A DNA stretch of 64,000 bases from contig CAZKWF010000001.1 in NCBI GenBank assembly GCA_964556565.1, positions 33,035 through 97,034 of the forward strand, read 5' to 3'. The notes under the pieces were generated by a model. The model saw only the letters and a list, made by a program, of their open reading frames with translations. It was not told where the DNA came from and searched no databases. The position numbers and the translations under genes were made by a program. Source of the DNA: an uncultured Candidatus Bathyarchaeia archaeon. GTDB taxonomy: Archaea; Thermoproteota; Bathyarchaeia; Bathyarchaeales; Bathyarchaeaceae. Below are positions 36,361-52,267 of this stretch, in pieces; positions within the stretch are counted from its first letter, which is position 1, and every line of letters starts with the position of its first letter.

Positions 36361-36936
36361 GCCAGGTTGCTGGAGTGAATGTCGTAAGTAAGGTGCAGTT
36401 GTATGTAGACCTTTTTAATTACCCAGCCTGTGGAGAGGAAGCCGCTGAGATGATACTTAGGGTTCTAGAGAAGGAGTGGGCCATCCAAGAAAGCTAGAGG
36501 CAATTCAAAATTTTCGCTTGAGTTTAAATAGTTTCGCTATTAACGAAAACGCTACCATATGAAATGCACACGTTTCCTTTTGTCTTAGATTTTCTTCTTA
36601 ACGAAACTGTAAGGCAATCCGACAGAAGATGCACTATCGCTATCGGATATTTTTCTCGGGAAATACGTACGCATGAACGACAGATCAGGGTATAAAACAT
36701 GGAGAAACTCGTATGTCTTGTAGAGAGGAAAAGTTGGCCTGACCAAGCCTAGAGTCTGCCATGGGCATGGAGAGATTATTGCGCTATTCTATTTGGAGCA
36801 TATTTGGCGAGGTATGTTGAAAACAACCGCTTTTTAATGGAGATGTGCTTCGCATGCTTGCTTTTCGTGTGGGTTTGGTTTTCGAAAATGATTTAAGGTT
36901 TGCTGCGTATGTTTGTTTGAGTCTGGTGATTTAGAA

Positions 36937-37179
36937 ATGGAGCCTGTTGTTGCTATGCTTTCAAGGTATGAGGAAAATGCGAAATGGCTTAGTAGTCACT
37001 ATGAGGAGTTGAAGAAGAGGTTTAAGGACGAGTGGATTGGGGTTCTGAACGAAACTGTTGTTGATCATGACCGCGAGTTGGGTAGGCTTGTTAAAAGGTT
37101 GCGTAAGAAGTATTCAGAGGCTTACAATGAGATTGCAGTGGAGTACGTCACTGCTAAAGAGATAGAGCTGATACTCTGA
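36937..37179 (+). CDS. DUF5678-like small protein (antitoxin-like partner)
   Basis: 80 aa from ATG 36937 (track TTG 36913). Pattern ...YEELKKRFKDEWIGVLNETVVDHDRELGRLVKRLRKKY. Confidence 0.55.
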   Translation: MEPVVAMLSRYEENAKWLSSHYEELKKRFKDEWIGVLNETVVDHDRELGRLVKRLRKKYSEAYNEIAVEYVTAKEIELIL

Positions 37180-37192
37180 AAAAGGGGATTTT

Positions 37193-37636
37193 TTGAGGAT
37201 TCCCTGCTTTTTTAAGCCTGGAATTTTTGAAGCGGCTTATGTTGTTGCCGTCTTAGAATCTAATGCTCTGGGTATGTGTGAGACAATTGAGTTTTTGGTT
37301 GATACTGGGGCTTCGAGGACAACGATCTGCGATAAGGATGCGATTAGATTAGGCATAGATTTTGGCAAGTTGGAGAAGCTTGGCGAGGGCATGCTTGGAA
37401 TAGGCGGAGTGGTTGACACCTATGTTTTGAAGGATGTTAAACTCGTTTTCCGCAGGGAAGACGAGAAAGGTCATGTGCAAAATTTTGAAAGAATTTACGT
37501 TTTGAAGCATGCTGCCTTAGACGAGAGAATTATGAGGATTCCAAGCATTCTCGGAAGAGACATACTAAACAAGTACGCGCTTATTTACGATAAAAGACAT
37601 GAAAAGGCATACATAACGGATGAAACGCTTACCTAA
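37193..37636 (+). CDS. Retropepsin-like (clan AA) aspartic protease
   Basis: 147 aa. Catalytic FLVDTGASRTTI (D-T-G-A) and C-terminal ILGRDIL. Starts 13 nt after the upstream gene. Confidence 0.7.
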   Translation: MRIPCFFKPGIFEAAYVVAVLESNALGMCETIEFLVDTGASRTTICDKDAIRLGIDFGKLEKLGEGMLGIGGVVDTYVLKDVKLVFRREDEKGHVQNFERIYVLKHAALDERIMRIPSILGRDILNKYALIYDKRHEKAYITDETLT

Positions 37637-38040: not shown

Positions 38041-38244
38041 TTACGTTTTCTTAATGAATTCGATTAGTGCAATTATGATGCCAGCTAACGCTACTAGTCC
38101 GCCTAGAATTTCCATAGCTGTCCAGAAGTTCATGTCGCCTCTTGTGATGAAGGCTATTAGGCAATTCCTTTGAGAAGCGTAAAAACCCAAAATTGTGCCG
38201 ACAATGAAAAGAGCTAAACCGAAGAGAATCAAGCTTTTCCTCAT
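38041..38244 (-). CDS. 67-aa two-TM membrane protein (copy 1)
   Basis: Its C-terminal 44 aa are identical to those of the 44575-44778 product. Confidence 0.6.
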   Translation of the reverse strand: MRKSLILFGLALFIVGTILGFYASQRNCLIAFITRGDMNFWTAMEILGGLVALAGIIIALIEFIKKT

Positions 38245-38307
38245 AAATCATCCCAACAAATCATACATCTAATTTAATGCATAGGCAAAGTCTTCTTTTG
38301 AGTTTGG
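38041..38307. repeat. Direct repeat, left copy (pairs with 44575-44840)
   Basis: By hand alignment the first 120 nt have 3 mismatches (97.5%) and the next 84 nt have 16 mismatches (81%). Similarity continues about 60 nt beyond the start codon. Confidence 0.85.
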
Positions 38308-38483: not shown

Positions 38484-39173
38484 TTAGTTTGTCTCTAATG
38501 GAAGAATATGGAATAGGAGTTCTCTCCCTCTCTTTCCAACTTCTGCTATTGTGCCCATCTTCTTAAGACAATAGGTAATTTTGCGTGCCAAGTTGACTGA
38601 AGCGGCAACACGTGCTGAAAGATCTTTGTTGGTGAAGGGATCAGGCAGTTCTCCTGGGAGGAATCTAAGAAAATCCTTTTCATCCTTGAACAGGACCCGT
38701 TCAGTGACACTTATCAGCTTCCTGTCCTTGACGCTCACTCCTCTTCTTCTCCAGCTTCCCCTTCCATCATTGCATCTCACTTCCTCCTCCTCAATCATTA
38801 AGACTTCGAGAGAAAAATTCCTATGCTCTACCAGATCTGGCAGTCTTACAAGTTCATGGAATAAGTCAACCAGCCTTCCTTTCTTCGGAGACTTTCTTCT
38901 GCTAAGTGGTTCGCCAGATTGCGCAACTCGGATTATCCATTTCTGTTTCGCTATAGGGTACACTAGCCGGACCTTGTGATCTCGAACTAATCTTTGGAGT
39001 TTTCTCTTAGCTGCAGAGAAATTATTAGTCTGGATTTCAACCAGCAAGCTACCTTGCACAACATCAACCACAAAGCCCCCAATATTGACTTCAAACATGT
39101 CTCCTGGAAGCGAATACCATTGTTTGATTGCTGAATGGAGAGTATATTCATTCATTGCATTCCAACTGTACAT
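38484..39173 (-). CDS. PD-(D/E)xK-like nuclease-fold protein with C-terminal wHTH-like region (tentative)
   Basis: 229 aa. The segment GGFVVDVVQGSLLVEIQTNNF...KVRLVYPI has a D...E-x-Q/K-like core. Confidence 0.4.
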   Translation of the reverse strand: MYSWNAMNEYTLHSAIKQWYSLPGDMFEVNIGGFVVDVVQGSLLVEIQTNNFSAAKRKLQRLVRDHKVRLVYPIAKQKWIIRVAQSGEPLSRRKSPKKGRLVDLFHELVRLPDLVEHRNFSLEVLMIEEEEVRCNDGRGSWRRRGVSVKDRKLISVTERVLFKDEKDFLRFLPGELPDPFTNKDLSARVAASVNLARKITYCLKKMGTIAEVGKRGRELLFHILPLETN

Positions 39174-39351: not shown

Positions 39352-41652
39352 TTAAAACGAGGTAAGTTTTGTGGACTCGTAGCCTCTAACTGAATTGTAA
39401 ATGTCCTTTGCGGAATAGCCAAATGGGCTCAAAAGGTTGGAAGCCGCTGAATAGAGGAGAAGAAGGTATTTTTTAATATCTGAACTCATGTTTCCCTCAA
39501 TCAATTCTTCCGCTTTGACCCTTCGTTCGTACCGTTTGTTTTTTGCACTCGTAAAGAGAAATCTAACACTCTTCCCAGCGGAAACCTCTACGCCTTCCTT
39601 CAAAAGTTGTTCGGCTGCAATCACTTGGCTGACTTTCTGCTTATAGCTTTCCAGATTCTTAGAAAGACGCTTAGTAACGATCAAGTCCCAGATAGACACT
39701 TCTCCATCTATCAATCTCTTTCTACATTCCCTAACTACGTTCAAAGCGTCGGGTATTTTCTCAATGAAGACCTTAGAATCACCAGCAGTAGCCAACACTC
39801 TGATCATTTCCATCTGCGCATCATACACGAATTTTGGCGTATCCCTTCTTCTAATCTCTATGCCCCTAACTTTAATTCTCCCATCTTCCTTAACACCGTA
39901 ATAGCGATTCAACACGGCAACGTTAGGGTGCATCTTAGAAGGAAGGAAAACAATCCACTTGTAGCGGCCTTCAAAATTTAGAGGTACTCCAATTTTTGCA
40001 CTTACCTCTCTACATAGGCTGATGTATTCCTGTGTTGTGGCGTCTACCTTCTTGAGCCACAGTGAATCAACGATTCCATGAATTATGCTGAATCCTCTTC
40101 TCTCAGCAATATGAGCGGTCTCCAGAAATGCTTGTCTGCCGAAAGCACAAACACCAATATGGCCGTCAACAGTGCCAAATTTAGCGTTTCTATATCCAAG
40201 GTAGCCGAAGCACGTTACTAGAATCCATTTCAAGGCATCTTGACGTCTTTCATAAACTTCTTTTAACCTCTCATCTTTAGCTTCTCTCTTCAACCTCTTA
40301 TAACGCAACCTTTTTGCAACCGCGAACCTCAAAGTCTTGGGCACGATTCCAATACGTTTCTCGCAGATGTTGTATCCAAGCTCAGGGATACGCAATGGCG
40401 AATCTGGACAACACTTGCAAAGAACAGTTTCAGCTGATATGTTGTTTTTGACCATCAAGGAAGGATACATTGACGAGAAATCTACTTCGCCAACCCAATT
40501 GTGAATGCCCATCCTGGGCTCATAGATAAAGCCTCCGCGGTCTCCAACTAATAGCTCATAGGCAGATTTGAAAGCTTCTGGAATACGTTTATTCCTAGGG
40601 ATCAAAACGTCATCCTTTATTGCTTGGTAGAACTGGAGAGACGACATGCTTGAGCCTATTGAAGATCGTGAAGCTCGATGTAGAGGCACTCTGCAGGTTC
40701 TGGCGATTTCGATAAGTCCTTCAATTCCACACTCGTTGAGAATGAACGTGTTGTTTTCGTCGATGTGAACTCTACCATAAAGTCTCCTCATAGGAGCCCG
40801 ATAGTATGTTCTGCCGTAAGAAAAGAAAGTTGTTCCACGTTTCCGCTTGGCAACAAGAGGTATGTTCGCTCTACTCAGAACAAACCTGTCTAAAACACCG
40901 TTAACCAGCGCCCTTCTTGCAAGATAAGGAAGTACATGCGAGTCACCACCGCTAGTCAACAAAATATCTGGATCAAGTTTCTTAGCAACTTCAACAAACT
41001 GCAGTAGTTTATCTTTCTCGTCACCAGAGTCAAGGATTATTTTCTCGCCATCTTGAAAAACAACTATATCCTCCAATGGGTCATCAAGGTTTGCTATCTT
41101 CCCTTTCTTAGCAATATCAACATGGATTCTCATGATACGCAAAGGCGGAATCTGATAATCAACACTTTCCACAGAGTCTAAAAGCCGATATCTCAACCCA
41201 TGCTTTTCAACCTCGATTTCAACAAAAGCAAGTGGAAAAATATCACGGTCATAAAGATAGGCTTGAGTGCTCCGCAGATCACAGTTGTGCACTTGATAAC
41301 GTAAATATCCACCGATTTCTAGGATTTCACGCACAAAGAATGGAATCCTTCTGCAATCTTTCAATGTAACCTCTAAAACCTTTGACTTTTCAGTATCAAT
41401 TGGATTAGCATATTTGTGAACGAAACTGCATGAGATTATTGATCTGTTAGCAAAGAATCGAGTTGAAAGTCTCTCTATATCTTCTTCTTTGCCGGAAATG
41501 TAGATTTTCGGTTTAAACTCATCTATCAAACGGATTCTTTCGCCATCCTCAGTGATAATCCAAATGCTCATCTGGCCAAATGCTGAAGGATAGAGGTCGA
41601 AAACCCAACCTTTCACATGCTTAAGGTTGACTGCATTACTTTCTGATTGCAT
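39352..41652 (-). CDS. Family-B DNA polymerase, PolB2-like, with degenerate exonuclease motifs and altered motif C
   Basis: 766 aa. Motif A DFSSMYPS is intact. Motif B reads KWILVTCFGYLG. Motif C reads HGIVDS instead of YxDTDS. ExoI reads HVDIA (E lost) and ExoII reads GGDSHVLPYL (FD lost). Confidence 0.85.
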   Translation of the reverse strand: MQSESNAVNLKHVKGWVFDLYPSAFGQMSIWIITEDGERIRLIDEFKPKIYISGKEEDIERLSTRFFANRSIISCSFVHKYANPIDTEKSKVLEVTLKDCRRIPFFVREILEIGGYLRYQVHNCDLRSTQAYLYDRDIFPLAFVEIEVEKHGLRYRLLDSVESVDYQIPPLRIMRIHVDIAKKGKIANLDDPLEDIVVFQDGEKIILDSGDEKDKLLQFVEVAKKLDPDILLTSGGDSHVLPYLARRALVNGVLDRFVLSRANIPLVAKRKRGTTFFSYGRTYYRAPMRRLYGRVHIDENNTFILNECGIEGLIEIARTCRVPLHRASRSSIGSSMSSLQFYQAIKDDVLIPRNKRIPEAFKSAYELLVGDRGGFIYEPRMGIHNWVGEVDFSSMYPSLMVKNNISAETVLCKCCPDSPLRIPELGYNICEKRIGIVPKTLRFAVAKRLRYKRLKREAKDERLKEVYERRQDALKWILVTCFGYLGYRNAKFGTVDGHIGVCAFGRQAFLETAHIAERRGFSIIHGIVDSLWLKKVDATTQEYISLCREVSAKIGVPLNFEGRYKWIVFLPSKMHPNVAVLNRYYGVKEDGRIKVRGIEIRRRDTPKFVYDAQMEMIRVLATAGDSKVFIEKIPDALNVVRECRKRLIDGEVSIWDLIVTKRLSKNLESYKQKVSQVIAAEQLLKEGVEVSAGKSVRFLFTSAKNKRYERRVKAEELIEGNMSSDIKKYLLLLYSAASNLLSPFGYSAKDIYNSVRGYESTKLTSF

Positions 41653-41896
41653 CTAACTTCTTCTCTAGCCTGTTCAAAGTCTTCTGTTGATGTAGGAGAA
41701 TCGACATGACCATGGATTCGAATAGTACAGGACGCGTGGCGTTGCCCCCGGCAGACGCGTAGTTTCTACATGCATCCATCATACGATCAAAAGCTGTTCT
41801 ATCTTCCTTTCGCAGAGCTCTCGCAAATCCACTCCAACTCTGCAATTCTCTATCTAGTGCCATTCGATATGATTCAACTGTTTTTCCCATCTTCAC
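41636..41896 (-). CDS. 86-aa helical hypothetical protein, translationally coupled within the polymerase operon
   Basis: Overlaps the polB start by 17 nt and the upstream RadA-like stop by 4 nt. Confidence 0.55.
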   Translation of the reverse strand: MKMGKTVESYRMALDRELQSWSGFARALRKEDRTAFDRMMDACRNYASAGGNATRPVLFESMVMSILLHQQKTLNRLEKKLDAIRK

Positions 41897-42612
41897 ACCT
41901 TCATGAATCTAGTGAGTGAGCGATTTTCTGAAGGGAAGCGAGCACTTCCTAAGGTGAAAAAAGGATGCTTCTCCAAGAGAAACTGCTGGCCTTGTTTAGA
42001 AGGTTTAATTGATGCTACAGCGTTGGCTCGTCCACAAACTACTGCTTTAAGAAAAATATTCTGCTTTGATGGATAATGAGGGGGGTAAGTAGCAACTACG
42101 ATCGCACGTTTTTCTTCAGCAAACTTTGAGAGAAAGAGGATCACTTTGTTGAAAACATGTCTAGCCTCTCTCTTAGGCACATCCTTGTCAAGATACAAGC
42201 CTGCAATATCTGATATAATAACAAGCTTCGAATTATGTTTCTTAACAGCCGTCTCCATTTTGTCAAGAATTAGAGAAGTCATCTGATAGGCTGTGAATGC
42301 TCTAGAAATGAAGATCCGTTCTAAAACTTCCTTCGGGCCAAGCTTGTGAAGTTGGGCAATATATGAAATGTCATACAATCTGAAAGTGTTGCCCCCGTCG
42401 ACGAACACCACGTTTGTCTCTAAGCCTCCAAGTTGATATGGAAGCTGGGCTCTAACGCAGAGAAGCATTGATAAGGGCAAGATTGTAGAAGCGCCATGAA
42501 GGACAGCAAAGTCGCCTAGGACAAAGCCTGGAAACAAGGCATCTATATTTTTGATGTTGAAAGATAAGCGAAGTTGAGAGGAAACGGTCTCTAACAATGT
42601 GCTTGCTGACAA
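41893..42612 (-). CDS. RadA/RadB-like RecA-fold protein lacking the Walker A lysine
   Basis: 239 aa. Collinear with RadB (NIDALFPGFVLGDFAVLHG, VVFVDGGNTFRL, LVIISDIAGLY), but GxxGxGKT is replaced by HGASTILP. Confidence 0.7.
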   Translation of the reverse strand: MSASTLLETVSSQLRLSFNIKNIDALFPGFVLGDFAVLHGASTILPLSMLLCVRAQLPYQLGGLETNVVFVDGGNTFRLYDISYIAQLHKLGPKEVLERIFISRAFTAYQMTSLILDKMETAVKKHNSKLVIISDIAGLYLDKDVPKREARHVFNKVILFLSKFAEEKRAIVVATYPPHYPSKQNIFLKAVVCGRANAVASIKPSKQGQQFLLEKHPFFTLGSARFPSENRSLTRFMKV

Positions 42613-42775
42613 AACTATCTTTCTCTCCTAACGTTGGGGTTAAAAACTTGGGATTCGAAGATTCTTAAAGATTTGGCAGTAGAATATTCTGGAAAAGGGG
42701 ACAGAGTAGAGCAAAAGTGAAAGCGGGGATGAAGATTAATTTGTCTGAATGTGAAAGTAAACAAGAGGGCGAAGA

Positions 42776-43690
42776 TTGACAGAGTACCTTGTTGGAACAG
42801 GCGGTTGGGCCTACTTCAAAGTTCCGAACAAACTTTCACTAAAAGCTTATTCTGAAAACTTCAACTTTGTAGAAGTGAACTATACCTTTTACAAATATCC
42901 TAGCGCCAAAATGGTGGAGAGATGGCGGCAAATAGTACCTAAGGATTTCACATTCACCGTTAGATGTCATCAAGACCTAACTCATAGAATCGGCTTTGTA
43001 CCAGTAGACCAAGCTTACGCAGTATTCGGTCGGATGATAGGTATATGTAGAATCCTTGACGCTCCCTTTCTACATTTGCTGACACCTGCAAGCTGTGTTC
43101 TCGACCACGTAAAGATAAGACAAGCAGAAGATTTCTTCTCAACAATCGATCTGAAGGGCGTACGCCTTGTTTGGGAAGTAAGAAGCCCCATAACTACGAA
43201 ACTCGTCAATCTTATGGAAGACTTTGGGATAGTCTATTCAGTTGACCTATCAAGGGAACCGCCAGCATACGAATCTGGTGTTATCTACAGCAGGGTTTTC
43301 GGTAAGGGGAAGCACAACCTCTACCAGTTCACTGATGAGGAGCTTGGGGAGATCGATCAGAAAATACTCAAAACTGAAGCGAAAATCGCAGTCATTACAT
43401 ATCATGGTCCACGAATGACAAGCGATGCTTTGAGATTCACGAAATACAAAGAAACAGGGAAATTTCCGCCAGTTACTGCTCACACAGGGATTGAATCAGC
43501 CAAAACAGTTCTTCAAGAGGATGCTAGACTTCCCTCAACAAAAGCAGAACTTGTCAGGCACCAAGGCTGGAAGGTAATCGATCTAGCAGCCGACAAGAGA
43601 GTCCACCTACATGAGTTACTTTCTAAAATACCTGAGAAGACTTACAATAGCATCCAAGAAGTGATTGAAGAATTGGAGGGTATCCAATGA
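42776..43690 (+). CDS. DUF72-family protein (divergent)
   Basis: 304 aa with a TTG start. YLVGTGGWAY...VEVNYTFYKYPS matches the DUF72 N-terminal signature. Confidence 0.75.
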   Translation: MTEYLVGTGGWAYFKVPNKLSLKAYSENFNFVEVNYTFYKYPSAKMVERWRQIVPKDFTFTVRCHQDLTHRIGFVPVDQAYAVFGRMIGICRILDAPFLHLLTPASCVLDHVKIRQAEDFFSTIDLKGVRLVWEVRSPITTKLVNLMEDFGIVYSVDLSREPPAYESGVIYSRVFGKGKHNLYQFTDEELGEIDQKILKTEAKIAVITYHGPRMTSDALRFTKYKETGKFPPVTAHTGIESAKTVLQEDARLPSTKAELVRHQGWKVIDLAADKRVHLHELLSKIPEKTYNSIQEVIEELEGIQ

Positions 43691-44517
43691 GCACAAGCAA
43701 CATTTTGCTAGGCACTTCAGGTTGGAGCTACAGGGAGTGGATAGGACCCTTCTATAGTAAGGGGGAGAAGAGTATGTTGCGTGCTTATGGAAGAGTCTTC
43801 AAAACGGCTGAGATAAATTCCACGTTCTACAGGTACCCTACAGATAAAATGGTCATGGGTTGGACGAGATATAGCCCTGCTGACTTCGTGTTCACGGCGA
43901 AGCTACCTAAGCTTATCACTCATGAGAAGAAACTCGATTTGGAGCAAGGGGTTGAGGAGGATCTTCAAAGATTTTGTGAAACAATGCGAATTCTGCTATT
44001 GAACGGGAAACTTGGGTGTTTGCTCATTCAGTTGCCCCCAAAATACGGGTATGATGTTGACCATTTGGAGTCTTTCTTCAAAATTCTTCCCGCCGACTTC
44101 AAATTTGCCGTGGAATTTCGCAACCTATCGTGGCTACAGAGTGAAACATGGAATTTGCTGAACAGATACAAGGTTGCTTACACCATCGTCGACGAGCCTC
44201 TGTTGCCGCCTGAAATTCACGTAACCTCAAGCTTTGCCTATTTCCGTTGGCACGGAAAGGGTGACAAACCGTGGTTTAACTACAGATATTCAAAGGATGA
44301 GTTGGAGCCTTGGATACCAAAGGTGAAGGAGACTTCTAAGAAAGTCAAGAAGGTATACGGCTATTTTAACAATCATTTCCACGGGTATGCACCTGAGAAC
44401 TGCCTGCAGGTATTGAAAATACTTGGCATGATCGAGTCTGGTCAGCAAGAAGCAATGCGACGCGTCAAAAAACACAGGCAAAAGCCGAAACAGACAACTC
44501 TCGGAGCATTTGGTTAG
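43687..44517 (+). CDS. DUF72-family protein
   Basis: 276 aa. ATGA overlap with the upstream DUF72 gene. About 70% identical by eye to residues 1-270 of the 10894-12096 product. Confidence 0.85.
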   Translation: MSTSNILLGTSGWSYREWIGPFYSKGEKSMLRAYGRVFKTAEINSTFYRYPTDKMVMGWTRYSPADFVFTAKLPKLITHEKKLDLEQGVEEDLQRFCETMRILLLNGKLGCLLIQLPPKYGYDVDHLESFFKILPADFKFAVEFRNLSWLQSETWNLLNRYKVAYTIVDEPLLPPEIHVTSSFAYFRWHGKGDKPWFNYRYSKDELEPWIPKVKETSKKVKKVYGYFNNHFHGYAPENCLQVLKILGMIESGQQEAMRRVKKHRQKPKQTTLGAFG

Positions 44518-44574: not shown

Positions 44575-44778
44575 TTATGTTTTCTTAATGAATTCGATTA
44601 GTGCAATTATGATGCCAGCTAACGCTACTAGTCCGCCTAGAATTTCCATGGCTGTCCAGAAGTTCATGTCGCCTCTTGTGATGAAAGCTATTAGACAGTT
44701 CCTCTGAGAAGCAGAAAAACCCAAAGCTGCGCCAACAACAAAAAGAACCAAACCGAACAGAATCAAGCTTCTCCTCAC
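44575..44778 (-). CDS. 67-aa two-TM membrane protein (copy 2, GTG start)
   Basis: Paralog of 38041-38244. Confidence 0.6.
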   Translation of the reverse strand: MRRSLILFGLVLFVVGAALGFSASQRNCLIAFITRGDMNFWTAMEILGGLVALAGIIIALIEFIKKT

Positions 44779-44840
44779 AAGTCAACCCAACAAATCAACA
44801 TCTAGGATAATGCAAAGGCAAAATATTCTTTTAAACTTTG
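44575..44840. repeat. Direct repeat, right copy (pairs with 38041-38307)
   Basis: See the left copy. Same orientation, 6534 bp apart. Confidence 0.85.
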
Positions 44841-45016: not shown

Positions 45017-45757
45017 CTAGGTTCTCTGGAATATCTGCGATAAATCTTCAAAGATTCTTTCATAACGTTTTACTTTTGTGCTTTCCCATCCTTTCTTGAA
45101 ATCCTCTCTGAGAATGTAAACACCATCCAACTCATACTCAGCGATTATTCTGTTTCTGCTTTTCCCGTCAAACGACCCTTTTTTATTCTTACTTATGATG
45201 AAGTCGTCGTCATTATCCGTAGTCGCTAAAAAGACACGGATGTTTTTTGTAACGTCCGATGATACTAGTTTCAACTTCCAATAACATGCTTGTGCTATCC
45301 GCTCTCGCAAGCTTGTCTTACAAGATATTATTGCTATTATATCGGATTTCCAAGGCTCTAAATTCGCAAATTTAACAATAGCTAGATCAGTATCTGGAAG
45401 TAGCAAGTATTCTCCATACTTCACAGCAAGTTTTCTGAGGATAATATCATTCTTTTTTATCTCGTTTTCTTGCAGAACTTCAAAATCCCGAAAGCTCTGG
45501 TCTTGGCTTTTAAGCTTAAGCAGGTACCCTTTGGTGATGGAGTAAATAACTTTTTGAAACTTATTTCCTATGTAACCATGCCAAGATTGTTCTAGGTCTT
45601 TGTCAGGATGAATCTGCCTCAAAACTTCGATGTACTCGTCTTTCAGTTTCTGAATCTCGTCCCATGCTGTCTCAGGAGGCAACTCTCCGGTTTTGACTTG
45701 ACTTATTAAGTTGTCTATCTTTTTTCTTGGGTCTGCTTTCATTTCTTTCCTCTCCAA
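45017..45757 (-). CDS. Type II restriction endonuclease-like PD-(D/E)xK protein
   Basis: 246 aa. LLLPDTDLAIV ... IIAIISCKTSLRERIAQ is a PD...SxK variant with the K-T-S-x-R-E-R tail common in type II REases. Lies 27 nt downstream of the methyltransferase gene. Confidence 0.65.
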   Translation of the reverse strand: MERKEMKADPRKKIDNLISQVKTGELPPETAWDEIQKLKDEYIEVLRQIHPDKDLEQSWHGYIGNKFQKVIYSITKGYLLKLKSQDQSFRDFEVLQENEIKKNDIILRKLAVKYGEYLLLPDTDLAIVKFANLEPWKSDIIAIISCKTSLRERIAQACYWKLKLVSSDVTKNIRVFLATTDNDDDFIISKNKKGSFDGKSRNRIIAEYELDGVYILREDFKKGWESTKVKRYERIFEDLSQIFQRT

Positions 45758-45784
45758 TTGAAGGGTCGACTACTCATTTGACTT

Positions 45785-47038
45785 TTACCTTTCGTATTGG
45801 GTCCACTCAATTTTCCGCGGCTTAGTCCTTTTGATTTTCTCTCCATTTGACTTTCGCATAATAAACAAATATTTGAAGCCTCGTAGAAAGAAGTTGAATC
45901 GTCTTGCACGATTGTACCACAAGCCCGTATGTGATGCTTGTCCTCTTCTGGCTATACATATAATATCGACTGTATCGAAGTGTTTGCATAATCTTTGATA
46001 AACTTTGAACCCTACTGGAGTAAATTGTCTTTTTACCCATTGGTCGCCAATTAGCCATCCAAGTACTTTTCCAGACTTTAGAATCCGATGACATTCTTTC
46101 ATCACCTTTTCAAGCTCATCGTAGAACAGTTCATTTTCACTTGAAATCTTACCTATGCAGTCGGCATGTTCATTATATCTTATGTTATCCCCATATGGAG
46201 AGTCAACGAATACTAGATCTACATGATTACCTGTGAGAGGAATTTTTCGTGAGTCATTTTGAATAATATCAGATCTTACTGGCGCAATATCGTAACCAAT
46301 CACTCTACGACCTTCTTCTTTGCAAACATCAATTGTGGTGCCACTACCGCACATTGGGTCGACTACCAAATCTCCAGGTTCGGTGTATCTCCAAATAATG
46401 TTCCATATAAGTAGAGCAGGTGTCACACCCGGATACTTATTATCCCCTTTGGGATATTTACCGTAGCTTTGTCTAGGAAAATCCCAAAGAGTTGTGGCCT
46501 CCAACAAAGGCAGTTCTTCATGAGGATCTTGGCCAATTTGCTTCACTTCACCTAGTAACTCCCATGATCTAAGTTCCTTTGATACCTCGAGATCTGAACC
46601 TTCGGTTTCTAACAAGAATTGGAACCAGTCGTCCATCCGTAAATTTTTGGGACGATAAAGCTCAAGGAGTTTAATAGTGACTTTCCTGTTCATAGGAGAA
46701 GAACGTTCTATTCCCAATGTTTTCAGCAGTTTCTTTGCGTTTTTTGTTGGTATAATTTTTCCAAGGGGTTCTGCTTTCACCTGATATGGATATTTGCCAT
46801 CCCATGCTTCTGGCTGGATGTTCATCTCTGCATCAGAGGTCGCTCTGAATACACCGTATAGCATGTCAGAGTCCAGATTTAGAAGGAATAAGAAGCTTCC
46901 CTTTCTCACTTTCATTGCAGCGGGCGCATAGAGCCTGTTTGTTCCGAAGAGCAGACGACTGAAGCATTCATTCTCCGATTTATTCGTACATGCAAAAACT
47001 TGTCCATGTATGATTGATTTCTTGGAGAGCTGAAGCAA
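45785..47038 (-). CDS. DCD (PUA-like) domain fused to an N4/N6-type DNA methyltransferase
   Basis: 417 aa. The N-terminus IHGQVFACTNKSENECFSRLLFGTN...GSFLFLLNLDSDMLYGVFRATSDAEMNIQPEAWDGKYPYQVK matches the DCD consensus. The C-terminal half has LVVDPMCGSGTT (motif I) followed by VFVDSPYG (motif IV). Confidence 0.8.
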   Translation of the reverse strand: MLQLSKKSIIHGQVFACTNKSENECFSRLLFGTNRLYAPAAMKVRKGSFLFLLNLDSDMLYGVFRATSDAEMNIQPEAWDGKYPYQVKAEPLGKIIPTKNAKKLLKTLGIERSSPMNRKVTIKLLELYRPKNLRMDDWFQFLLETEGSDLEVSKELRSWELLGEVKQIGQDPHEELPLLEATTLWDFPRQSYGKYPKGDNKYPGVTPALLIWNIIWRYTEPGDLVVDPMCGSGTTIDVCKEEGRRVIGYDIAPVRSDIIQNDSRKIPLTGNHVDLVFVDSPYGDNIRYNEHADCIGKISSENELFYDELEKVMKECHRILKSGKVLGWLIGDQWVKRQFTPVGFKVYQRLCKHFDTVDIICIARRGQASHTGLWYNRARRFNFFLRGFKYLFIMRKSNGEKIKRTKPRKIEWTQYER

Positions 47039-47230
47039 TAGTAAATATCTCCCTTCAACTTGTTAAGTAGAACTGCTTATTTAAGCATAGCAGAACTCGA
47101 AAACTTACCTTCCTAGCTTATGCGCACTTGGATAAATAATAAAATGTTTGTTAAGAAAAAAAGGAAAACTGTTCTTTTAATCTATTCTATCTCTGGAAAA
47201 GTTATAAGAGAACACGTGCTCTGATTAAAT

Positions 47231-47238
47231 TGCATGCA
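47231..47238. repeat. ATGCATGCAT-family palindrome (8-mer core)
   Basis: tgcatgca, 34 nt upstream of ATG 47272. Confidence 0.6.
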
Positions 47239-47271
47239 GTTTTTATATTCTGATTACTACTATCCTTAGTC

Positions 47272-48312
47272 ATGAGTTCAAAATTAGGCTTCTCAGAGTG
47301 GCCTTTCCGTACAATCCCAGACGAGGAATTCGTCAAGATATGGTGCGGTCGTAAAGAACTCTACGAAAGATTAGATAGGATATTCAACGGTATTGTCCGA
47401 AGACCGATGTTCCAGATTCATTTGGTGTACGGAGATTTTGGAACAGGGAAAACACACAGTATCAAGCATATGATAACCAAGTACCGTGAAAAGGTTAAGC
47501 TCTTGACGTCAGAGTTAGAATACGATATCACAATTAGGACGTTCACACAGTTATATCAGGCTCTGGTGAGTCGGTTAGACTTCAAAACAATTATAAAGTG
47601 GCCTAATCCCCCAGAAAAGAATTTCTGGCATGATTTTAGGTCTTTTGTTGGAGCAATCAAATCAAAGGACGAAGAAGAAAAAACAATAGCCACGAGATGG
47701 TTTACAGGTGAAGAAAAAAGCAAGAAAGCTCTAAGCAGAATCGGTATCAGAAGCCCTGTAGACAGCGTTGACACAACTATACGTGCATTTTCGCAACTCA
47801 CCAAACTGGCTGGGAGAAACAGATCTGCAGTTGTGTTGTTTATAGACGAGTTCCAACATATTGGCAAGCTCAACAGGAATTGGAAGGAGAGCATCCTGAA
47901 TGGATTAACCAAACTGGTGAACTCAAGCCCAAAGCATTTTTGTCTAATAATCTCGTTCAGACTTAGAATGCCGATGAAAATCCTTTCAATTATCCCGGAG
48001 AGCATGAAAACTAGATTCTCAGGGGATCCATTCATAGAGGTTACAAACTTTTCCAGAGATGAAGCGGAAGAATTCATGAAATGCCTTTTTAGGAAATTTC
48101 GCACTCGTAAATCTGAAGATCCATATCTTCCCTTCACACCCGAAGCTTTTGAAGCAATATTTGCGTTTCTAAAGAAGAGGAATGTAGAGTACAATCCCAG
48201 ATCTTTAATGAAGGTATTCGGATATGTAAGTGAGCGCTTTGAGGATTCCTCCCAAAACCCACCAATTTCTGAAGATTTCACAAAGGTATCATTGTGGTCT
48301 TATCAGGCATAA
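47272..48312 (+). CDS. ORC/Cdc6-like P-loop ATPase (paralog of 52274-53437)
   Basis: 346 aa. CGRKELYERL..., Walker A VYGDFGTGKTHS and Walker B VVLFIDEFQH. Its stop lies 1 nt from the convergent 48314-49351 stop. Confidence 0.7.
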   Translation: MSSKLGFSEWPFRTIPDEEFVKIWCGRKELYERLDRIFNGIVRRPMFQIHLVYGDFGTGKTHSIKHMITKYREKVKLLTSELEYDITIRTFTQLYQALVSRLDFKTIIKWPNPPEKNFWHDFRSFVGAIKSKDEEEKTIATRWFTGEEKSKKALSRIGIRSPVDSVDTTIRAFSQLTKLAGRNRSAVVLFIDEFQHIGKLNRNWKESILNGLTKLVNSSPKHFCLIISFRLRMPMKILSIIPESMKTRFSGDPFIEVTNFSRDEAEEFMKCLFRKFRTRKSEDPYLPFTPEAFEAIFAFLKKRNVEYNPRSLMKVFGYVSERFEDSSQNPPISEDFTKVSLWSYQA

Positions 48313-48313
48313 G

Positions 48314-49351
48314 TCATTCCGGTAAATTGTGTGGATACGTGTATAAACCATCGATTATGGGTGAAAACGCTTCTTTGTCGAAGACAAGATTTGTCGAAGT
48401 AGTATGAACCTCAATCCGACCTCTTAGCCTAGAAAAAATTTCTGGGCCTTCGGGGACTTCTGAAAGATCTCTCCAAATAGGATTCTTCGTTGGAACTTCC
48501 TTTTCAACTGCTGCTATTGATTCCACGAATTTCGGAGCATGACTTGTTATGCAGGAAGTTTCAACTATCCGAGAATTGTAAAGAATTAACACGTTTTGTA
48601 GAAATCGTTTCTGAACTGAGTTATCTTTCGAGAACATGAGGACGGGATCACCACGATAGAGAGGTTGGTTTATGTAGGCGTCTAACATGCCACTAATGAA
48701 GTTTTTCAGTTGTTTTGAATTCAGCTGCATACACACTCTTTCAAGCCGAGCAGCACATATTATTCTATGAAGTTCTGCCAACGCATTTCCCTTGAGTATA
48801 ATCCACAAATGTCCAAGCTTTCCTTTTTTTATTTTCACCACAATCTTCCTGTTTATACTATCTGCTAAACTCGTGATGCAATGTTCGACGAATTTTACAT
48901 ATTTAGGATCGGTCGCATTACGGACCAGCGAGACAATACATTTGTTGTTACTACTTACAATATCGGTAGCCAACCCGCTTCCATACACCGCATCGGATTG
49001 CCAATCCATGATTTCTCCTTTCACTCCTGGTACGAACTCAGGGGATTTAGGGGGATTGTAAAATTCAATAGCGCTGACCGAACATAGATCCTTTGTCTTG
49101 AAAGGCCTCTCTGAAAAAACAACAGTTTCAGGTACCAGAACACTATCTGTAGTTTGTGTGATCAGCCTAGTGCCACAGGATTTCTCTTCATTGCGTAATC
49201 CGACTTTCCGGTATTTTGTGTGCTTACCTATTCCTTCGACACCTAAGACCTTCGCATCTCTTGGAAGTTGGTTCAGAGAAATGACTCCACATCTGGTGAA
49301 AACAAAGCTATCCTTCGAAACTACTACGCCATAGCTCATTTCATATCCCAA
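48314..49351 (-). CDS. Free-standing intein-like protein (degenerate Hint + LAGLIDADG domains)
   Basis: 345 aa. Block-A-like VVSKDSFVFTRCGVISLNQL, LAGLIDADG-like YGSGLATDI and FISGMLDAYI, and terminal IEVHTTSTNLVF...IDGLYTYPHN followed by only 3 residues. The nucleophile and the TxxH His are absent. Confidence 0.55.
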   Translation of the reverse strand: MGYEMSYGVVVSKDSFVFTRCGVISLNQLPRDAKVLGVEGIGKHTKYRKVGLRNEEKSCGTRLITQTTDSVLVPETVVFSERPFKTKDLCSVSAIEFYNPPKSPEFVPGVKGEIMDWQSDAVYGSGLATDIVSSNNKCIVSLVRNATDPKYVKFVEHCITSLADSINRKIVVKIKKGKLGHLWIILKGNALAELHRIICAARLERVCMQLNSKQLKNFISGMLDAYINQPLYRGDPVLMFSKDNSVQKRFLQNVLILYNSRIVETSCITSHAPKFVESIAAVEKEVPTKNPIWRDLSEVPEGPEIFSRLRGRIEVHTTSTNLVFDKEAFSPIIDGLYTYPHNLPE

Positions 49352-49776
49352 GGTATAAAGAAAGTTGGTGAATCTAGGGTACCCTGATAGTCCACTATAC
49401 CTTCTAAAAGAAGATGTGTAAACAAGGTCCTCACTATTAACGATGAATATCCAGTGAGTCGCGAAGCATCTGTGACAGACAACTTCTTTTTCTTGTACAG
49501 CATTTTCATTAACGGTGATAGAATGCTACTTAGATTGTTCTCCTTTGTCGCAAGCGTAAAAAAGGAGTAAGGTCTCTCTTTTTTGCTCAATGCAATATGC
49601 TCGTAGATTTTTCGTTCGATCACCAATTTCTTTATGATTTCATTTACTTCATTTCTTGATGTATCACTTGCTACATTTTGGATAATATGAATCAAATGTG
49701 GTTTGTTCACGATCAATCTTGATCCTATCTGCTCAAAAACGTGTTCCACGATTTTCTTGTAACTGTTGATTGTCAA
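49336..49776 (-). CDS. Small protein with two wHTH-like halves
   Basis: 146 aa. 16-nt overlap with the downstream Hint-like gene. Confidence 0.45.
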   Translation of the reverse strand: MTINSYKKIVEHVFEQIGSRLIVNKPHLIHIIQNVASDTSRNEVNEIIKKLVIERKIYEHIALSKKERPYSFFTLATKENNLSSILSPLMKMLYKKKKLSVTDASRLTGYSSLIVRTLFTHLLLEGIVDYQGTLDSPTFFIPWDMK

Positions 49777-49787
49777 AGTAGTTCAAC

Positions 49788-50831
49788 CTAAAGTTTGATT
49801 CTGAGAAACCTTTTTTCGCCGTATCTGTCTGGAAGTATCTGATACCTATGCCTATCGTTTGTTTGCGCCTCATTTATCATTTCCCTAGCTTCAGATTCCT
49901 TCAGTCTATAACCTTGTAAGCCTTTTTGAATCACCAGTATATTAATCAAAGTGTTTATGTCGCAAACATTGAAAGCTGGGTCACGCAATTTTTCGTACAG
50001 GTTCTCTACATGTTCAATCGTTTCTTGACCTGAAACTATCTTGGTTCCTGGGTATCCACAGTTTCTAAGAAGAGTGTGCAATAGATCCTCCTGCGCTCGT
50101 GAAACAACTGTCTTGTAATTTGGTAAGAATCTAATGATTTCACAGTATGGCCTTACAACGTTTTTCTCTAAGAAGGAAATTCTATTGTTGCTGGGTCCCT
50201 CTCTATTTACAAGGTTCAAGTCTTCCATGATGCCAAGCGAAGGCTTTATCTTTGGATATAACGCCTTGGCGGTTTTTCCTCGTCTAACCGCTTTTCTATA
50301 CAACTTTAGATATCTCCTTCGAATGTCTAGACTATGAACAGACTCGACAGCAATCTTGAGTGCGTGGACGTAGACGGAGAAAGCATGATCAACCAATTCG
50401 TTTTTTGGCAGCATTTTTCTCGCCTTATACCAGCGGTAATCGTCACGGATTTCCCCAAATCTCTCAAGGTGATCGTGAAGCGATTTCACCATAGCATAAT
50501 TCTCCAATAGAAAACATCTCAAAAAAAAGATCTTGAATTCAACGGGAAGCTCTATCGGAATTTCCTCTACTGGTGTGAAAAATTCCAGAGTTCTACCCCA
50601 TGGAGTCAATTTGTTGTTCCTGAAAATCACTTCCAGTTCTTTTGCTATCGTTATTGTGTATTGTATAGACCTTTTATTCTGTTTATATCCTTCTTCAATC
50701 CCATGGATTTTCCTGAAGGAACTCAATGCCTCTCCAAACTTTCGAGCAATCATCATATCAGAACTTGGCTCTCTTGTCTTGACGCATCCCTTGAGAAGCA
50801 GTGCAAAATAGACAATCTTGTCAACTTGCAT
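49788..50831 (-). CDS. Alpha-helical hypothetical protein of the island operon
   Basis: 347 aa with no recognisable motif. Gaps of 11 and 23 nt to the neighbouring genes. Confidence 0.5.
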   Translation of the reverse strand: MQVDKIVYFALLLKGCVKTREPSSDMMIARKFGEALSSFRKIHGIEEGYKQNKRSIQYTITIAKELEVIFRNNKLTPWGRTLEFFTPVEEIPIELPVEFKIFFLRCFLLENYAMVKSLHDHLERFGEIRDDYRWYKARKMLPKNELVDHAFSVYVHALKIAVESVHSLDIRRRYLKLYRKAVRRGKTAKALYPKIKPSLGIMEDLNLVNREGPSNNRISFLEKNVVRPYCEIIRFLPNYKTVVSRAQEDLLHTLLRNCGYPGTKIVSGQETIEHVENLYEKLRDPAFNVCDINTLINILVIQKGLQGYRLKESEAREMINEAQTNDRHRYQILPDRYGEKRFLRIKL

Positions 50832-50854
50832 ATGTGTATTAATAAGAAGAGGCT

Positions 50855-52267
50855 TCAGTACTCTTTTCCACCATGAACGCTTACACGGGGTCTTATTTTG
50901 ATTGTGAATAGTCTGTTGACCGTCTCAGAGGAGATTATGCAGTACCCAAGTTTTAGGTCTCTACCTACCTCTTTAAAGAGATTTCTTTGTATTTCTCTCG
51001 AACCTATCTTTGCTCTTTCGAAATCTGATGTATTTCTCATGTTATATGCAGTCAAGATGTCTTGATCTCTTGATAGGCTATGGATAATTCCGATGTCTAG
51101 ATTCGCCTGAATTGAGGCATCGAGAGCTGAAGGCGATTGTGTGGCGAAAGCAGCAGATAACCCTATGTTCCGACCCTCTTTAACATATTTTAAAAGAGGC
51201 CCTTTTGAAGGCGGACTTCTTGTGGCAGGTATGTAGTTATGTGCTTCATCCATCAGGATCCAACCTCTTGGCGTCCACTCTTTTTTTAGTAAGAGTTGAA
51301 GTTTCTTAATTTCCCCTTTGTAATCAGATGAAGATGACTTGGTTAATAATTCCAATCTCTTCTCACATTCGTCCGTTATACCTCGGGCTTGGAAGATTTT
51401 TCGAGTTAGGACACCAACCACAGTCGTTCTCAACTCTTGTTCTAGATCCCGTAGCAACAAAACTGAGATTTTTCCATCCTTGAATATTTCCCGCACAGGT
51501 ATAGAGAAAGAGCCAAATATTTTTGCCAATTCAAGAGACCGTACTCTTCTAAATGCCGCATCCAAAGTTTTTTGTTCATATCGGTTCTTGGTTGAAGATG
51601 ATTCAAGCTTCGAATAAATATCAGAAAATGAAATTTCATCTTGCTCTTGCAGTGAAGTAATTAGATCCATGAATAGCTGTCCAAGGGGATCGGCTATCGG
51701 ATCTAATCCAAACATAAAACACCAATCTGCAGGTTCAAGATCTTTTAGGCTCAGCGAAAACTCAGTGAACTCAGGCGGATAATAATCCCTCTTGTATCCG
51801 TATGGAAAATAGAAGTCCGCAGGGACTTTTTCCTCCTTAATTCCCCATCTTTCAAGTTCGTTAATTCTCTCTTTTCCCTCCATGCTGGCTAGGTATTGCA
51901 TGCCCCAAAATACGTTGAGGGAATCAAACACTATAACAGCTTGGTGATCCTTCATCTGATTTATCCACTGCTTGCTAACTAGGCCCTCTGCAAGCACACC
52001 TAATGTATAGCTCTTGCCACTACGTCTTTTTCCCATAACGTAAACTATGTGGGCTCTATCAGTGTCCATCCAGACATCACAAGAATTAGTATCATATTCA
52101 TTGGATTTGCCAAGATATATACAAGATGGCGAATCCTCAGATGAGGAGCCAATGATCATGCCAGTTTTGGATGACCATGGCTTTTGTGGCTTAAGTTTTG
52201 GCAGAAAGCGATACCATTGTTCAAAAAGGATTCGTCTGAATTCAGGAATGTTTTCTGGTTTATCCAT
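50855..52267 (-). CDS. HerA/FtsK-superfamily ATPase (DUF87-like)
   Basis: 470 aa. Walker A MGKRRSGKSYTLG and Walker B WILMDEAHNYIP, plus GRNIGLSAAFATQSPSALD and GIIHSLSRDQD, as in HerA-type ATPases. Confidence 0.75.
   Translation of the reverse strand: MDKPENIPEFRRILFEQWYRFLPKLKPQKPWSSKTGMIIGSSSEDSPSCIYLGKSNEYDTNSCDVWMDTDRAHIVYVMGKRRSGKSYTLGVLAEGLVSKQWINQMKDHQAVIVFDSLNVFWGMQYLASMEGKERINELERWGIKEEKVPADFYFPYGYKRDYYPPEFTEFSLSLKDLEPADWCFMFGLDPIADPLGQLFMDLITSLQEQDEISFSDIYSKLESSSTKNRYEQKTLDAAFRRVRSLELAKIFGSFSIPVREIFKDGKISVLLLRDLEQELRTTVVGVLTRKIFQARGITDECEKRLELLTKSSSSDYKGEIKKLQLLLKKEWTPRGWILMDEAHNYIPATRSPPSKGPLLKYVKEGRNIGLSAAFATQSPSALDASIQANLDIGIIHSLSRDQDILTAYNMRNTSDFERAKIGSREIQRNLFKEVGRDLKLGYCIISSETVNRLFTIKIRPRVSVHGGKEY

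Follow-up and report, generated by a model that had tools for sequence, protein, structure and literature searches.

An operon uniting an 'inactivated' PolB2 DNA polymerase, inactivated RadA-family ATPases and a helical protein of ~90 aa (arCOG07300) was predicted by Makarova, Krupovic and Koonin in 2014, with its first observation credited to a 2013 analysis and its occurrence extending across archaea and some bacteria (PMC4104785). In 2025, Timinskas, Timinskas and Venclovas renamed the two partners iRadA and PPB2, classified the gene orders and presented a high-confidence model of a PolB2:iRadA:PPB2x3 heteropentamer (PMC11791011). An 'MGRT' arm was recognized in PPB2 and a D(K/R) loop motif, preceded by a mimic of the RadA oligomerisation motif, in PolB2; PCNA-binding motifs were located in either iRadA or PolB2, and orc1/cdc6, SRAP and DUF72 genes were found to be enriched beside polB2 (PMC11791011). 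The locus analysed here lies in a stretch of 64,000 nucleotides (the window) from contig CAZKWF010000001.1 of an uncultured Candidatus Bathyarchaeia archaeon, in which genes for iRadA, PPB2 and PolB2 stand next to two divergent DUF72 genes (Table 1). This trio is the published iRadA-PPB2-PolB2 'mutasome' operon, an archaeal damage-tolerance polymerase with two helper proteins, and it is already known as such. The window locus is read as a chromosomal PolB2 mutasome operon of gene order 1a, with PolB2 acting as a translesion extender together with iRadA and PPB2, at a probability of roughly 85%. The gene identities, the motif states, the synteny and the conservation of the promoter motif are direct observations.

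Function and regulation have been shown for Sulfolobales only, in Dpo2 of Sulfolobus/Saccharolobus islandicus (SiRe_0614/0615 region). Dpo2 is likewise exonuclease-dead and has the first aspartate of motif C replaced (IID, against IVD in the window), and its partners are, as in the window, an ATPase-dead RadA paralog and an arCOG07300 protein. The S. islandicus enzyme, with IID at motif C, was shown to be a robust polymerase without proofreading that inserts poorly opposite lesions and efficiently extends mismatched and lesion-opposed termini (PMC8764526). Moreover, the S. islandicus dpo2 genes are damage-induced in an Orc1-2-dependent manner (PMC6061795). The gene order differs, being 3a (PPB2-PolB2-iRadA) in Sulfolobales and 1a in the window, and the exonuclease domain of the S. 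islandicus protein is structurally decayed (PMC11791011), whereas the window protein, at 766 aa, has about the length of the solved archaeal PolBs with which it was aligned. From this literature, the Bathyarchaeia proteins would likewise be expected to form a complex, to act as an extender and to be induced by damage.

Two systems from outside archaea offer further parallels. The published analogy is with the E. coli Pol V mutasome (UmuD'2C-RecA-ATP), in which a translesion polymerase associates with a RecA/Rad51-family subunit through mimicry of a filament interface, a small subunit inserts its N-terminal arm and the complex binds the clamp. In contrast to the archaeal complex, the catalytic subunit of Pol V belongs to the Y family, its RecA is an active protein that also serves recombination, unlike the dedicated, ATPase-dead iRadA, and its small subunits are unrelated to PPB2 and present in another stoichiometry. 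Eukaryotic Pol zeta (Rev3-Rev7 with Pol31 and Pol32) is also a multisubunit, damage-linked B-family enzyme with an inactive exonuclease domain, working as an extender after insertion opposite a lesion, but its accessory subunits are unrelated and none of them is RadA-like.

The closest likeness is to the type 1a operons of Bathyarchaeota. The operons of GCA_026014805.1 and GCA_020351305.1 are tabulated as type '1a (iRadA-PPB2-PolB2)', with the neighbours 'DUF72 DUF72 iRadA PPB2 PolB2' and IVD at 525 (PMC11791011, Supplementary data file 1). The polymerase sequences in that table are the homologs P0006 and P0054 of this analysis, whose loci had been fetched independently (L003 and L001); the window polymerase is 84% and 73% identical to them, and, both being published as PolB2, it is assigned to the PolB2 clade rather than to PolB1 or PolB3. 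Since these orthologs are tabulated with the same neighbours, the window carries a member of a catalogued operon, DUF72 pair included. Gene order and lengths (239 / 84–89 / 766–767 aa) are the same in the window, as are IVD at ~525–527, the divergent DUF72-DUF72 arrangement and the iRadA C-terminal motif at 230. Only the flanks differ, those of the window consisting of a DUF8091 gene, duplicated genes for a 67-aa membrane protein and a restriction-modification/defence island. A modelled set of Bathyarchaeum PolB2, iRadA and three PPB2 scored ~0.91 (PMC11791011). The exact polymerase sequence of the window has no record in the contig index; a relative with 94% identity is on record, and the closest relatives all come from metagenome-assembled genomes (MAGs) of Bathyarchaeota/Bathyarchaeia.

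An earlier note on this DNA had proposed a fixed partnership between a polymerase and an inactive recombinase, devoted to damage tolerance. The idea was right and matches the published operon; the novelty that it implied does not hold, as the operon is described in PMC4104785 and PMC11791011 and the Bathyarchaeota form with two DUF72 neighbours is already listed. The finding as submitted adds no new biology, since the association was public by 2014 and the predicted complex followed in 2025, in a paper that also covers DUF72 enrichment, clamp-binding motifs and near-identical Bathyarchaeota operons (PMC11791011). Its practical value is one of annotation: PolB2, PPB2 and iRadA receive their names, and the start of PPB2 is moved to 41890.

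The polymerase matches Pfam DNA_pol_B (1.8e-33), and its motifs were read by alignment to the solved archaeal PolBs 5mdn and 2jgu. All of the exonuclease motifs are altered: ExoI (canonical FDIE) reads V-D179-I-A181, with the Asp kept and the Glu lost, ExoII (canonical NGDSFD) reads G235-G-D-S-H239-V240, and ExoIII (canonical YxxxD) reads R294...D298. Motif A (canonical DxxSLYPS) is intact as D391-FSSMYPS. Motif B (canonical KxxxNSxYG), which the earlier note did not mention, is changed to K475-WIL-V479-T480-C-F482-G (KWILVTCFG), and motif C (canonical YGDTDS) reads HG-I527-V528-D529-S, with IVD replacing DTD. The calls previously made for these motifs (motif A kept, ExoI and ExoII lost, HGIVDS) are each confirmed by this alignment, in which neither the exonuclease residues nor the DTD residues are intact.

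The first motif-C Asp is thus replaced, and the second one, together with the motif-A Asp, is invariant in 17 aligned homologs. Among the 87 related loci examined, the motif-C core HGIVDS[LMF] is present in 84 (HGIVDSL in 81/87). The peptide KWILVTCFGY occurs in 87/87 by construction, having served as the scan pattern, and is not counted as evidence. The Pfam DNA_pol_B_exo1 model reaches 18 bits on the polymerase, under its cutoff, while NCBIfam 'type B' models give 370 and 332 bits against 194 or fewer for DNA polymerase I models, all of them under their cutoffs. The protein does not qualify as a replicative PolB1 or PolB3: ExoI–III and DTD are altered, and the DNA polymerase I equivalogs score 119–194 bits against cutoffs of 780–1289.

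The first partner, iRadA, matches Pfam Rad51 (9.8e-15) over residues 47–175. In the alignment to Pyrococcus RadA (1pzn), Walker A GEFGSGKTQ is opposite HG--ASTIL, a 2-residue deletion, so that the lysine and threonine of the P-loop are gone. The Walker A position is occupied by HGASTILP (residues 39–46), as the earlier note had reported, and a search for the GxxxxGK[ST] P-loop in 60 Bathyarchaeia iRadA homologs found it in none (0/60). The N-terminal helical domain is missing as well, with the alignment beginning at RadA residue ~112. The protein is neither a canonical RadA nor a canonical RadB, the two RadA models giving 61 bits (cutoff 259) and 60 bits (cutoff 361) and the RadB model 22 bits (cutoff 172).

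These losses can be read in another way. With the first motif-C Asp and the exonuclease site lost, motif B altered and iRadA devoid of a P-loop, the complex might be catalytically dead and have a structural or regulatory role, for instance in replication-fork handling or origin-independent initiation, as originally proposed in 2014 (PMC4104785). This is unlikely, because Dpo2, whose motif C is altered in the same way (IID), polymerises robustly and is needed for damage tolerance (PMC8764526, PMC11791011), and because the conservation of the two remaining Asp residues (17 homologs) and of HGIVDS[LMF] (84/87 loci) argues against a dead enzyme. The description 'exonuclease-dead, motif-C-altered' is not supported as a sign of lost polymerase activity, given the robust activity of Sulfolobus Dpo2 with IID at that position (PMC8764526). 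Since Dpo2 is its homolog, the extension of mismatched and lesion-opposed ends is the most likely function of the window PolB2. The protein would act as the catalytic subunit, lacking proofreading and retaining the Asp of motif A and the second Asp of motif C, and by analogy with Dpo2 it would extend mismatched or lesion-opposed primer ends in translesion synthesis.

The predicted contacts of the complex can be followed in the window proteins. Segment 355–369 of PolB2, with 361-FKSA-364 inside it, is an insertion when compared with 5mdn and canonical PolB, and, compared by sequence, FKSA sits where the published complex model puts the iRadA-binding motif. The adjacent G370-D371-R372-G-G is invariant (17 homologs) and has VDKGG as its aligned counterpart in a 34%-identical operon. 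iRadA is proposed to be a dedicated, ATPase-dead Rad51-fold scaffold that would dock on the PolB2 loop (361-FKSA-364 and D371-R372), a mimic of the RadA oligomerisation motif.

The second partner, PPB2, belongs to PF26485/DUF8156, which is found in 120/120 PPB2 homologs among the matches listed. This family name, like that of the 229-aa protein discussed below, was taken by proxy from precomputed hits on close homologs; a Pfam copy without the DUF8156 and DUF8091 models gave no hits for either protein, even at E = 10. The N-terminus xGK/RTVxSYR is conserved in ~70 related loci, with ATG, GTG or TTG as initiators, and G2, K3, T4, V5, S7, Y8 and R9 are invariant (24 sequences). BLASTP relates the protein to a distant MGRT-type PPB2 (3e-07). 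The AlphaFold2 model (pLDDT 73.6) contains helices at 5–25, 28–46 and 53–83; Foldseek against PDB gave nothing significant, and a sigma-factor-like fold was not reproduced. PPB2 may form a three-helix trimeric pillar, one MG(K/R)T arm of which would be inserted between PolB2, iRadA and DNA and reach the active-site cleft.

Binding to the clamp would involve the C-terminal tails. A clamp-binding-like motif, 230-NRSLTRFM-237 (nt 41925–41902), ends iRadA, and [LIVM]xx[FY] is present in the C-terminal tail of 57/60 iRadA homologs. In the operon of the 84% ortholog, the corresponding iRadA sequence, NLTLTEFM at residue 230, is rated a PCNA motif in Supplementary data file 1 of PMC11791011. The C-terminal tail of PolB2, STKLTSF, lacks the Gln of a clamp-binding motif and is therefore a weak candidate. 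The iRadA tail NRSLTRFM, and perhaps the PolB2 tail STKLTSF too, would tether the complex to PCNA.

A cysteine cluster was also observed in PolB2 at residues 412–430 (40419–40363), with the pattern C412-x-C414-C415...C430. Neither Bathyarchaeia PolB2 nor the 34%-identical relative deviates at any of the four Cys, and the region aligns with a two-Cys stretch (C-knydi...C-kdipgf) of Pyrococcus PolB 2jgu. The additional CxCC suggests a possible metal site.

The three open reading frames (ORFs) were confirmed, co-oriented on the minus strand, at the positions given in Table 1, with one change of gene boundary. The ORF-finder version of the small gene (41636–41896, 86 aa) starts at a GTG at 41896. 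The corrected start is the ATG at 41890–41888, two codons inside the GTG ORF and just after GGTG, which makes the protein 84 aa long, so that the earlier description of an 86-aa helical protein stands as regards the helices and not as regards the length. The iRadA/PPB2 junction is TGA-AG-ATG, a 2-nt gap, and gene callers in related loci also put the PPB2 start 2 nt past the iRadA stop codon. The 4-nt GTGA overlap that had been reported is therefore an artefact of the GTG start chosen by the ORF finder, as is also apparent from the N-terminus conserved in homologs. The 17-nt overlap between PPB2 and PolB2 was upheld, with Met1 of the polymerase invariant in 17 homologs. The 2-nt gap and the 17-nt overlap would allow coupled translation of the three genes.

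The conservation of the neighbourhood, which the earlier note had recommended surveying, was followed in the related loci, 80 of which extend 1.3 kb or more upstream of polB2 and 71 of which are long enough for a DUF72 count. The complete trio recurs in 60/80 Bathyarchaeia loci. The two flanking DUF72 genes named in the earlier note both match Pfam DUF72; a divergent DUF72 gene adjoins iRadA in 16/71 loci and occurs as a pair in 14/71, with DUF72a in the same position in L001, L003–L016 and L069. In the loci whose gene tables were read, the five-gene block (trio and two DUF72 genes) is conserved and the flanking genes vary by genome.

The trio and the DUF72 pair share a 163-nt divergent intergenic region. 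On the iRadA side it contains a Shine-Dalgarno-like GGAG and, ~58 nt before the start codon, a TATA-like CTTTAAGAAT / CTTTAAGAA (consensus TTTAAAA); a TATA-like ATTAAT is found on the DUF72 side. The promoter element was derived from 17 aligned orthologous DUF72/iRadA spacers and then from 60 distinct iRadA-upstream regions. A conserved element, TT[CT]ACTTT[CTA]AC, is placed ~45–50 nt upstream of the TATA box and is followed by a CTCTCC-like tract. Its consensus upstream of Bathyarchaeia PolB2 operons is TTCACTTTCAC, with the extended form TTCACTTTCAC-TSTACTCTCC, and the full architecture comprises TTCACTTTCAC, the CTCTCC-like tract, GTCGTTTC in many clades, and TTTAAAA.

The exact 11-mer was found in 33/60 upstream regions, in forward orientation only and mostly at -106 to -127, against a chance expectation of 0.005 per region, although kinship inflates the counts. 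With the same reservation about kinship, the 1.1 Mb of related loci contain 49 exact 11-mers, of which 41 precede a PolB2 operon and 2 precede stray iRadA/PPB2 paralogs. Related forms of the element also precede solo PolB2 genes and PPB2-PolB2 operons. Two copies are present in the window: copy 1 (TTCACTTTTGC) is in the conserved position and is followed by TCTACTCTGTCC, and copy 2 (TTTACTTTCAC) is an exact match that falls after the putative TATA box of DUF72 and before the start of that gene. This intergenic copy is the sole exact 11-mer match in the window; allowing one mismatch, the 11-mer is not enriched across the whole window (12 matches against 8 expected).

In Sulfolobus, Orc1-2 binds the ANTTTC core of a 20-bp damage-response element, AATAGTTTCRGWDTACTCWS, to which the extended consensus of the Bathyarchaeia element is similar. 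Because the shared region holds a damage-response-like element, damage-induced co-expression of the trio and the DUF72 pair is suggested, and the operon and the divergent DUF72 genes would be induced together from this common 163-nt promoter region. The TIM-barrel family DUF72 has UV-damage endonuclease among its relatives. It is tentatively proposed, from the resemblance of the two elements and with somewhat less than even odds, that an Orc1-2-type damage regulon reaches beyond Sulfolobales into mesophilic uncultivated Bathyarchaeia and has DUF72 as a member. If true, the element could delimit a damage-response regulon for a class of archaea that is abundant and uncultivated, and would tie DUF72 to that response. 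The promoter architecture, which precedes practically every PolB2 gene of Bathyarchaeia, seems to be undescribed, and it may be the sole new part of the present analysis.

Several observations count against the translesion-extender reading. The best NCBIfam models for the polymerase (NF004418, NF004416) remain below their curated cutoffs. The changes in motif B (N to V, Y to F) are strong, and the kinetics may therefore differ from those of Dpo2. In the promoter region, the copy of the element at the conserved position has one mismatch, and the proximal GTCGTTTC box of many relatives is absent from the window's clade. Finally, PPB2 is present with iRadA undetectable in 10/80 loci and PolB2 is without adjacent partners in 10/80 loci, so the PolB2-iRadA-PPB2 partnership is not absolute.

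Variant arrangements were noted in individual loci. Solo PolB2 genes with IVD and no adjacent iRadA or PPB2 were seen in L036, L037, L038, L042, L045, L073, L085 and L087, and a related promoter precedes them wherever upstream sequence was read. PPB2-PolB2 pairs without detectable iRadA were seen in L031, L033, L048, L051, L059, L060, L064, L072 and L075; among those read, a tiny ORF stands in the place of iRadA (e.g., L051). Some MAGs hold the trio and a solo copy together (e.g., L035/L085 and L068/L087).

Table 1. Features of the PolB2 locus and its flanks in the window (positions count from the first nucleotide of the window).
Feature	Position	Strand	Size and basis
Direct repeat, left copy	38041–38263		
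229-aa gene (DUF8091)	38484–39173	-	conserved start at second Met, 39155 (223 aa)
PolB2 family-B polymerase	39352–41652	-	766 aa; Pfam DNA_pol_B, motif alignment
PPB2 (arCOG07300, Pfam DUF8156)	41636–41890	-	84 aa; three helices, N-terminal arm MGKTVESYR
iRadA (inactivated RadA/Rad51 paralog)	41893–42612	-	239 aa; Pfam Rad51, alignments to 1pzn and 4a6p
Divergent intergenic region, iRadA/DUF72	42613–42775	.	163 nt; sequence, 17-spacer alignment, motif statistics
Shine-Dalgarno-like GGAG, iRadA side	about 42626–42629		
TATA-like box, iRadA side	42661–42670	-	
Conserved element, copy 1	42711–42721	-	
TATA-like ATTAAT, DUF72 side	near 42735–42742		
Conserved element, copy 2	42751–42761	-	
DUF72 paralog a	42776–43690	+	304 aa; Pfam DUF72 2.9e-27; divergent from trio
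DUF72 paralog b	43687–44517	+	276 aa; Pfam DUF72 1.3e-63; overlaps DUF72a by 4 nt
Direct repeat, right copy	44575–44797		
Defence-type island	45017–52267		immediately right
BsaWI-like type II endonuclease	45017–45757		defence-type island
N6/N4 DNA methyltransferase with N-terminal DCD ('development and cell death') domain	45785–47038		defence-type island
BrxD/SngB-like AAA ATPase	47272–48312		defence-type island
Two ORFs without family hit	within 45017–52267		defence-type island
HerA/mad8-like ATPase	50855–52267		defence-type island

The 229-aa gene next to PolB2 belongs to DUF8091 (PF26351), with ~2,259 detected relatives, the named ones from Bathyarchaeota. Foldseek matched only its C-terminal winged helix (ribosomal protein S25e- or ArsR-like); some sources misname DUF8091 homologs 'ribosomal protein S25'. 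No homolog was found in the 87 related loci, and the gene is therefore not part of the module. A PD-(D/E)xK label for the protein rests solely on the conserved pattern D31...E40-x-Q42 in adjacent beta-strands and was not accepted. The view of a PD-(D/E)xK-like neighbour as a part of the module is thus not supported, the protein being of the DUF8091 family, with no nuclease fold shown and no counterpart in those loci.

A direct repeat of ~223–255 nt, with 91% identity and a nearly identical 3' half, brackets a 6.3-kb block containing the DUF8091 gene, the PolB2 operon and the two DUF72 genes. Such a 223-nt repeat could mark an island in which a mobile element or virus has the trio as its replication module, an alternative already raised in the earlier note. 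The variation of the flanks between genomes, often with integrase, Mrr or restriction-modification genes, and the matches of PPB2, iRadA and DUF72 each to a PHROG of unknown function point the same way. On closer reading, however, the repeat consists merely of two copies of a gene for a 67-aa predicted membrane protein with its upstream region, and no homolog of that gene was found in the 87 related loci. The block itself contains no gene for an integrase, Cas1 or a terminal protein, and exonuclease-dead polymerases are poor replicases. Relatives number only 3 in 2.9 million IMG/VR contigs, against more than 586 hits in species-representative genomes, including chromosomal contexts in complete MAGs. 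The mobile-element explanation, at best weakly supported, is accordingly considered very unlikely, and the chromosomal mutasome operon is retained.

A protein-primed PolB of the casposon or pipolin type was also considered and rejected, with no Cas1 or integrase among the neighbours, the exonuclease site lost and 3 viral-contig hits. A distant relative was found in L090 (7195–10972; IMG/VR UViG 2547132368_000001), a contig classed as viral that carries a 34%-identical iRadA(192 aa)-PPB2(MGRT)-PolB2(ITD)-SRAP operon. The contig is either a provirus carrying the mutasome or miscalled as viral, and it serves for distant comparison and is not taken to indicate mobility.

The island immediately to the right of the block (45–52 kb) encodes a BsaWI-like endonuclease, a methyltransferase and BrxD/SngB-like and HerA/mad8-like ATPases, a setting in which the trio might be an anti-phage defence system with a polymerase-like protein. 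This is highly improbable: no PADLOC model was matched by the trio or DUF72 proteins, save for a polymerase-to-intein-host artefact labelled HEase, and adjacency to defence genes is not conserved in related loci. Further to the left (36913–37636, plus strand), the interval that separates a methylmalonyl-CoA mutase cluster from the PolB2 block holds an unusual pair, a small DUF5678 gene and, after it, a 147-aa gene with a retroviral-type aspartyl-protease domain (RVP/gag-asp_proteas hits).

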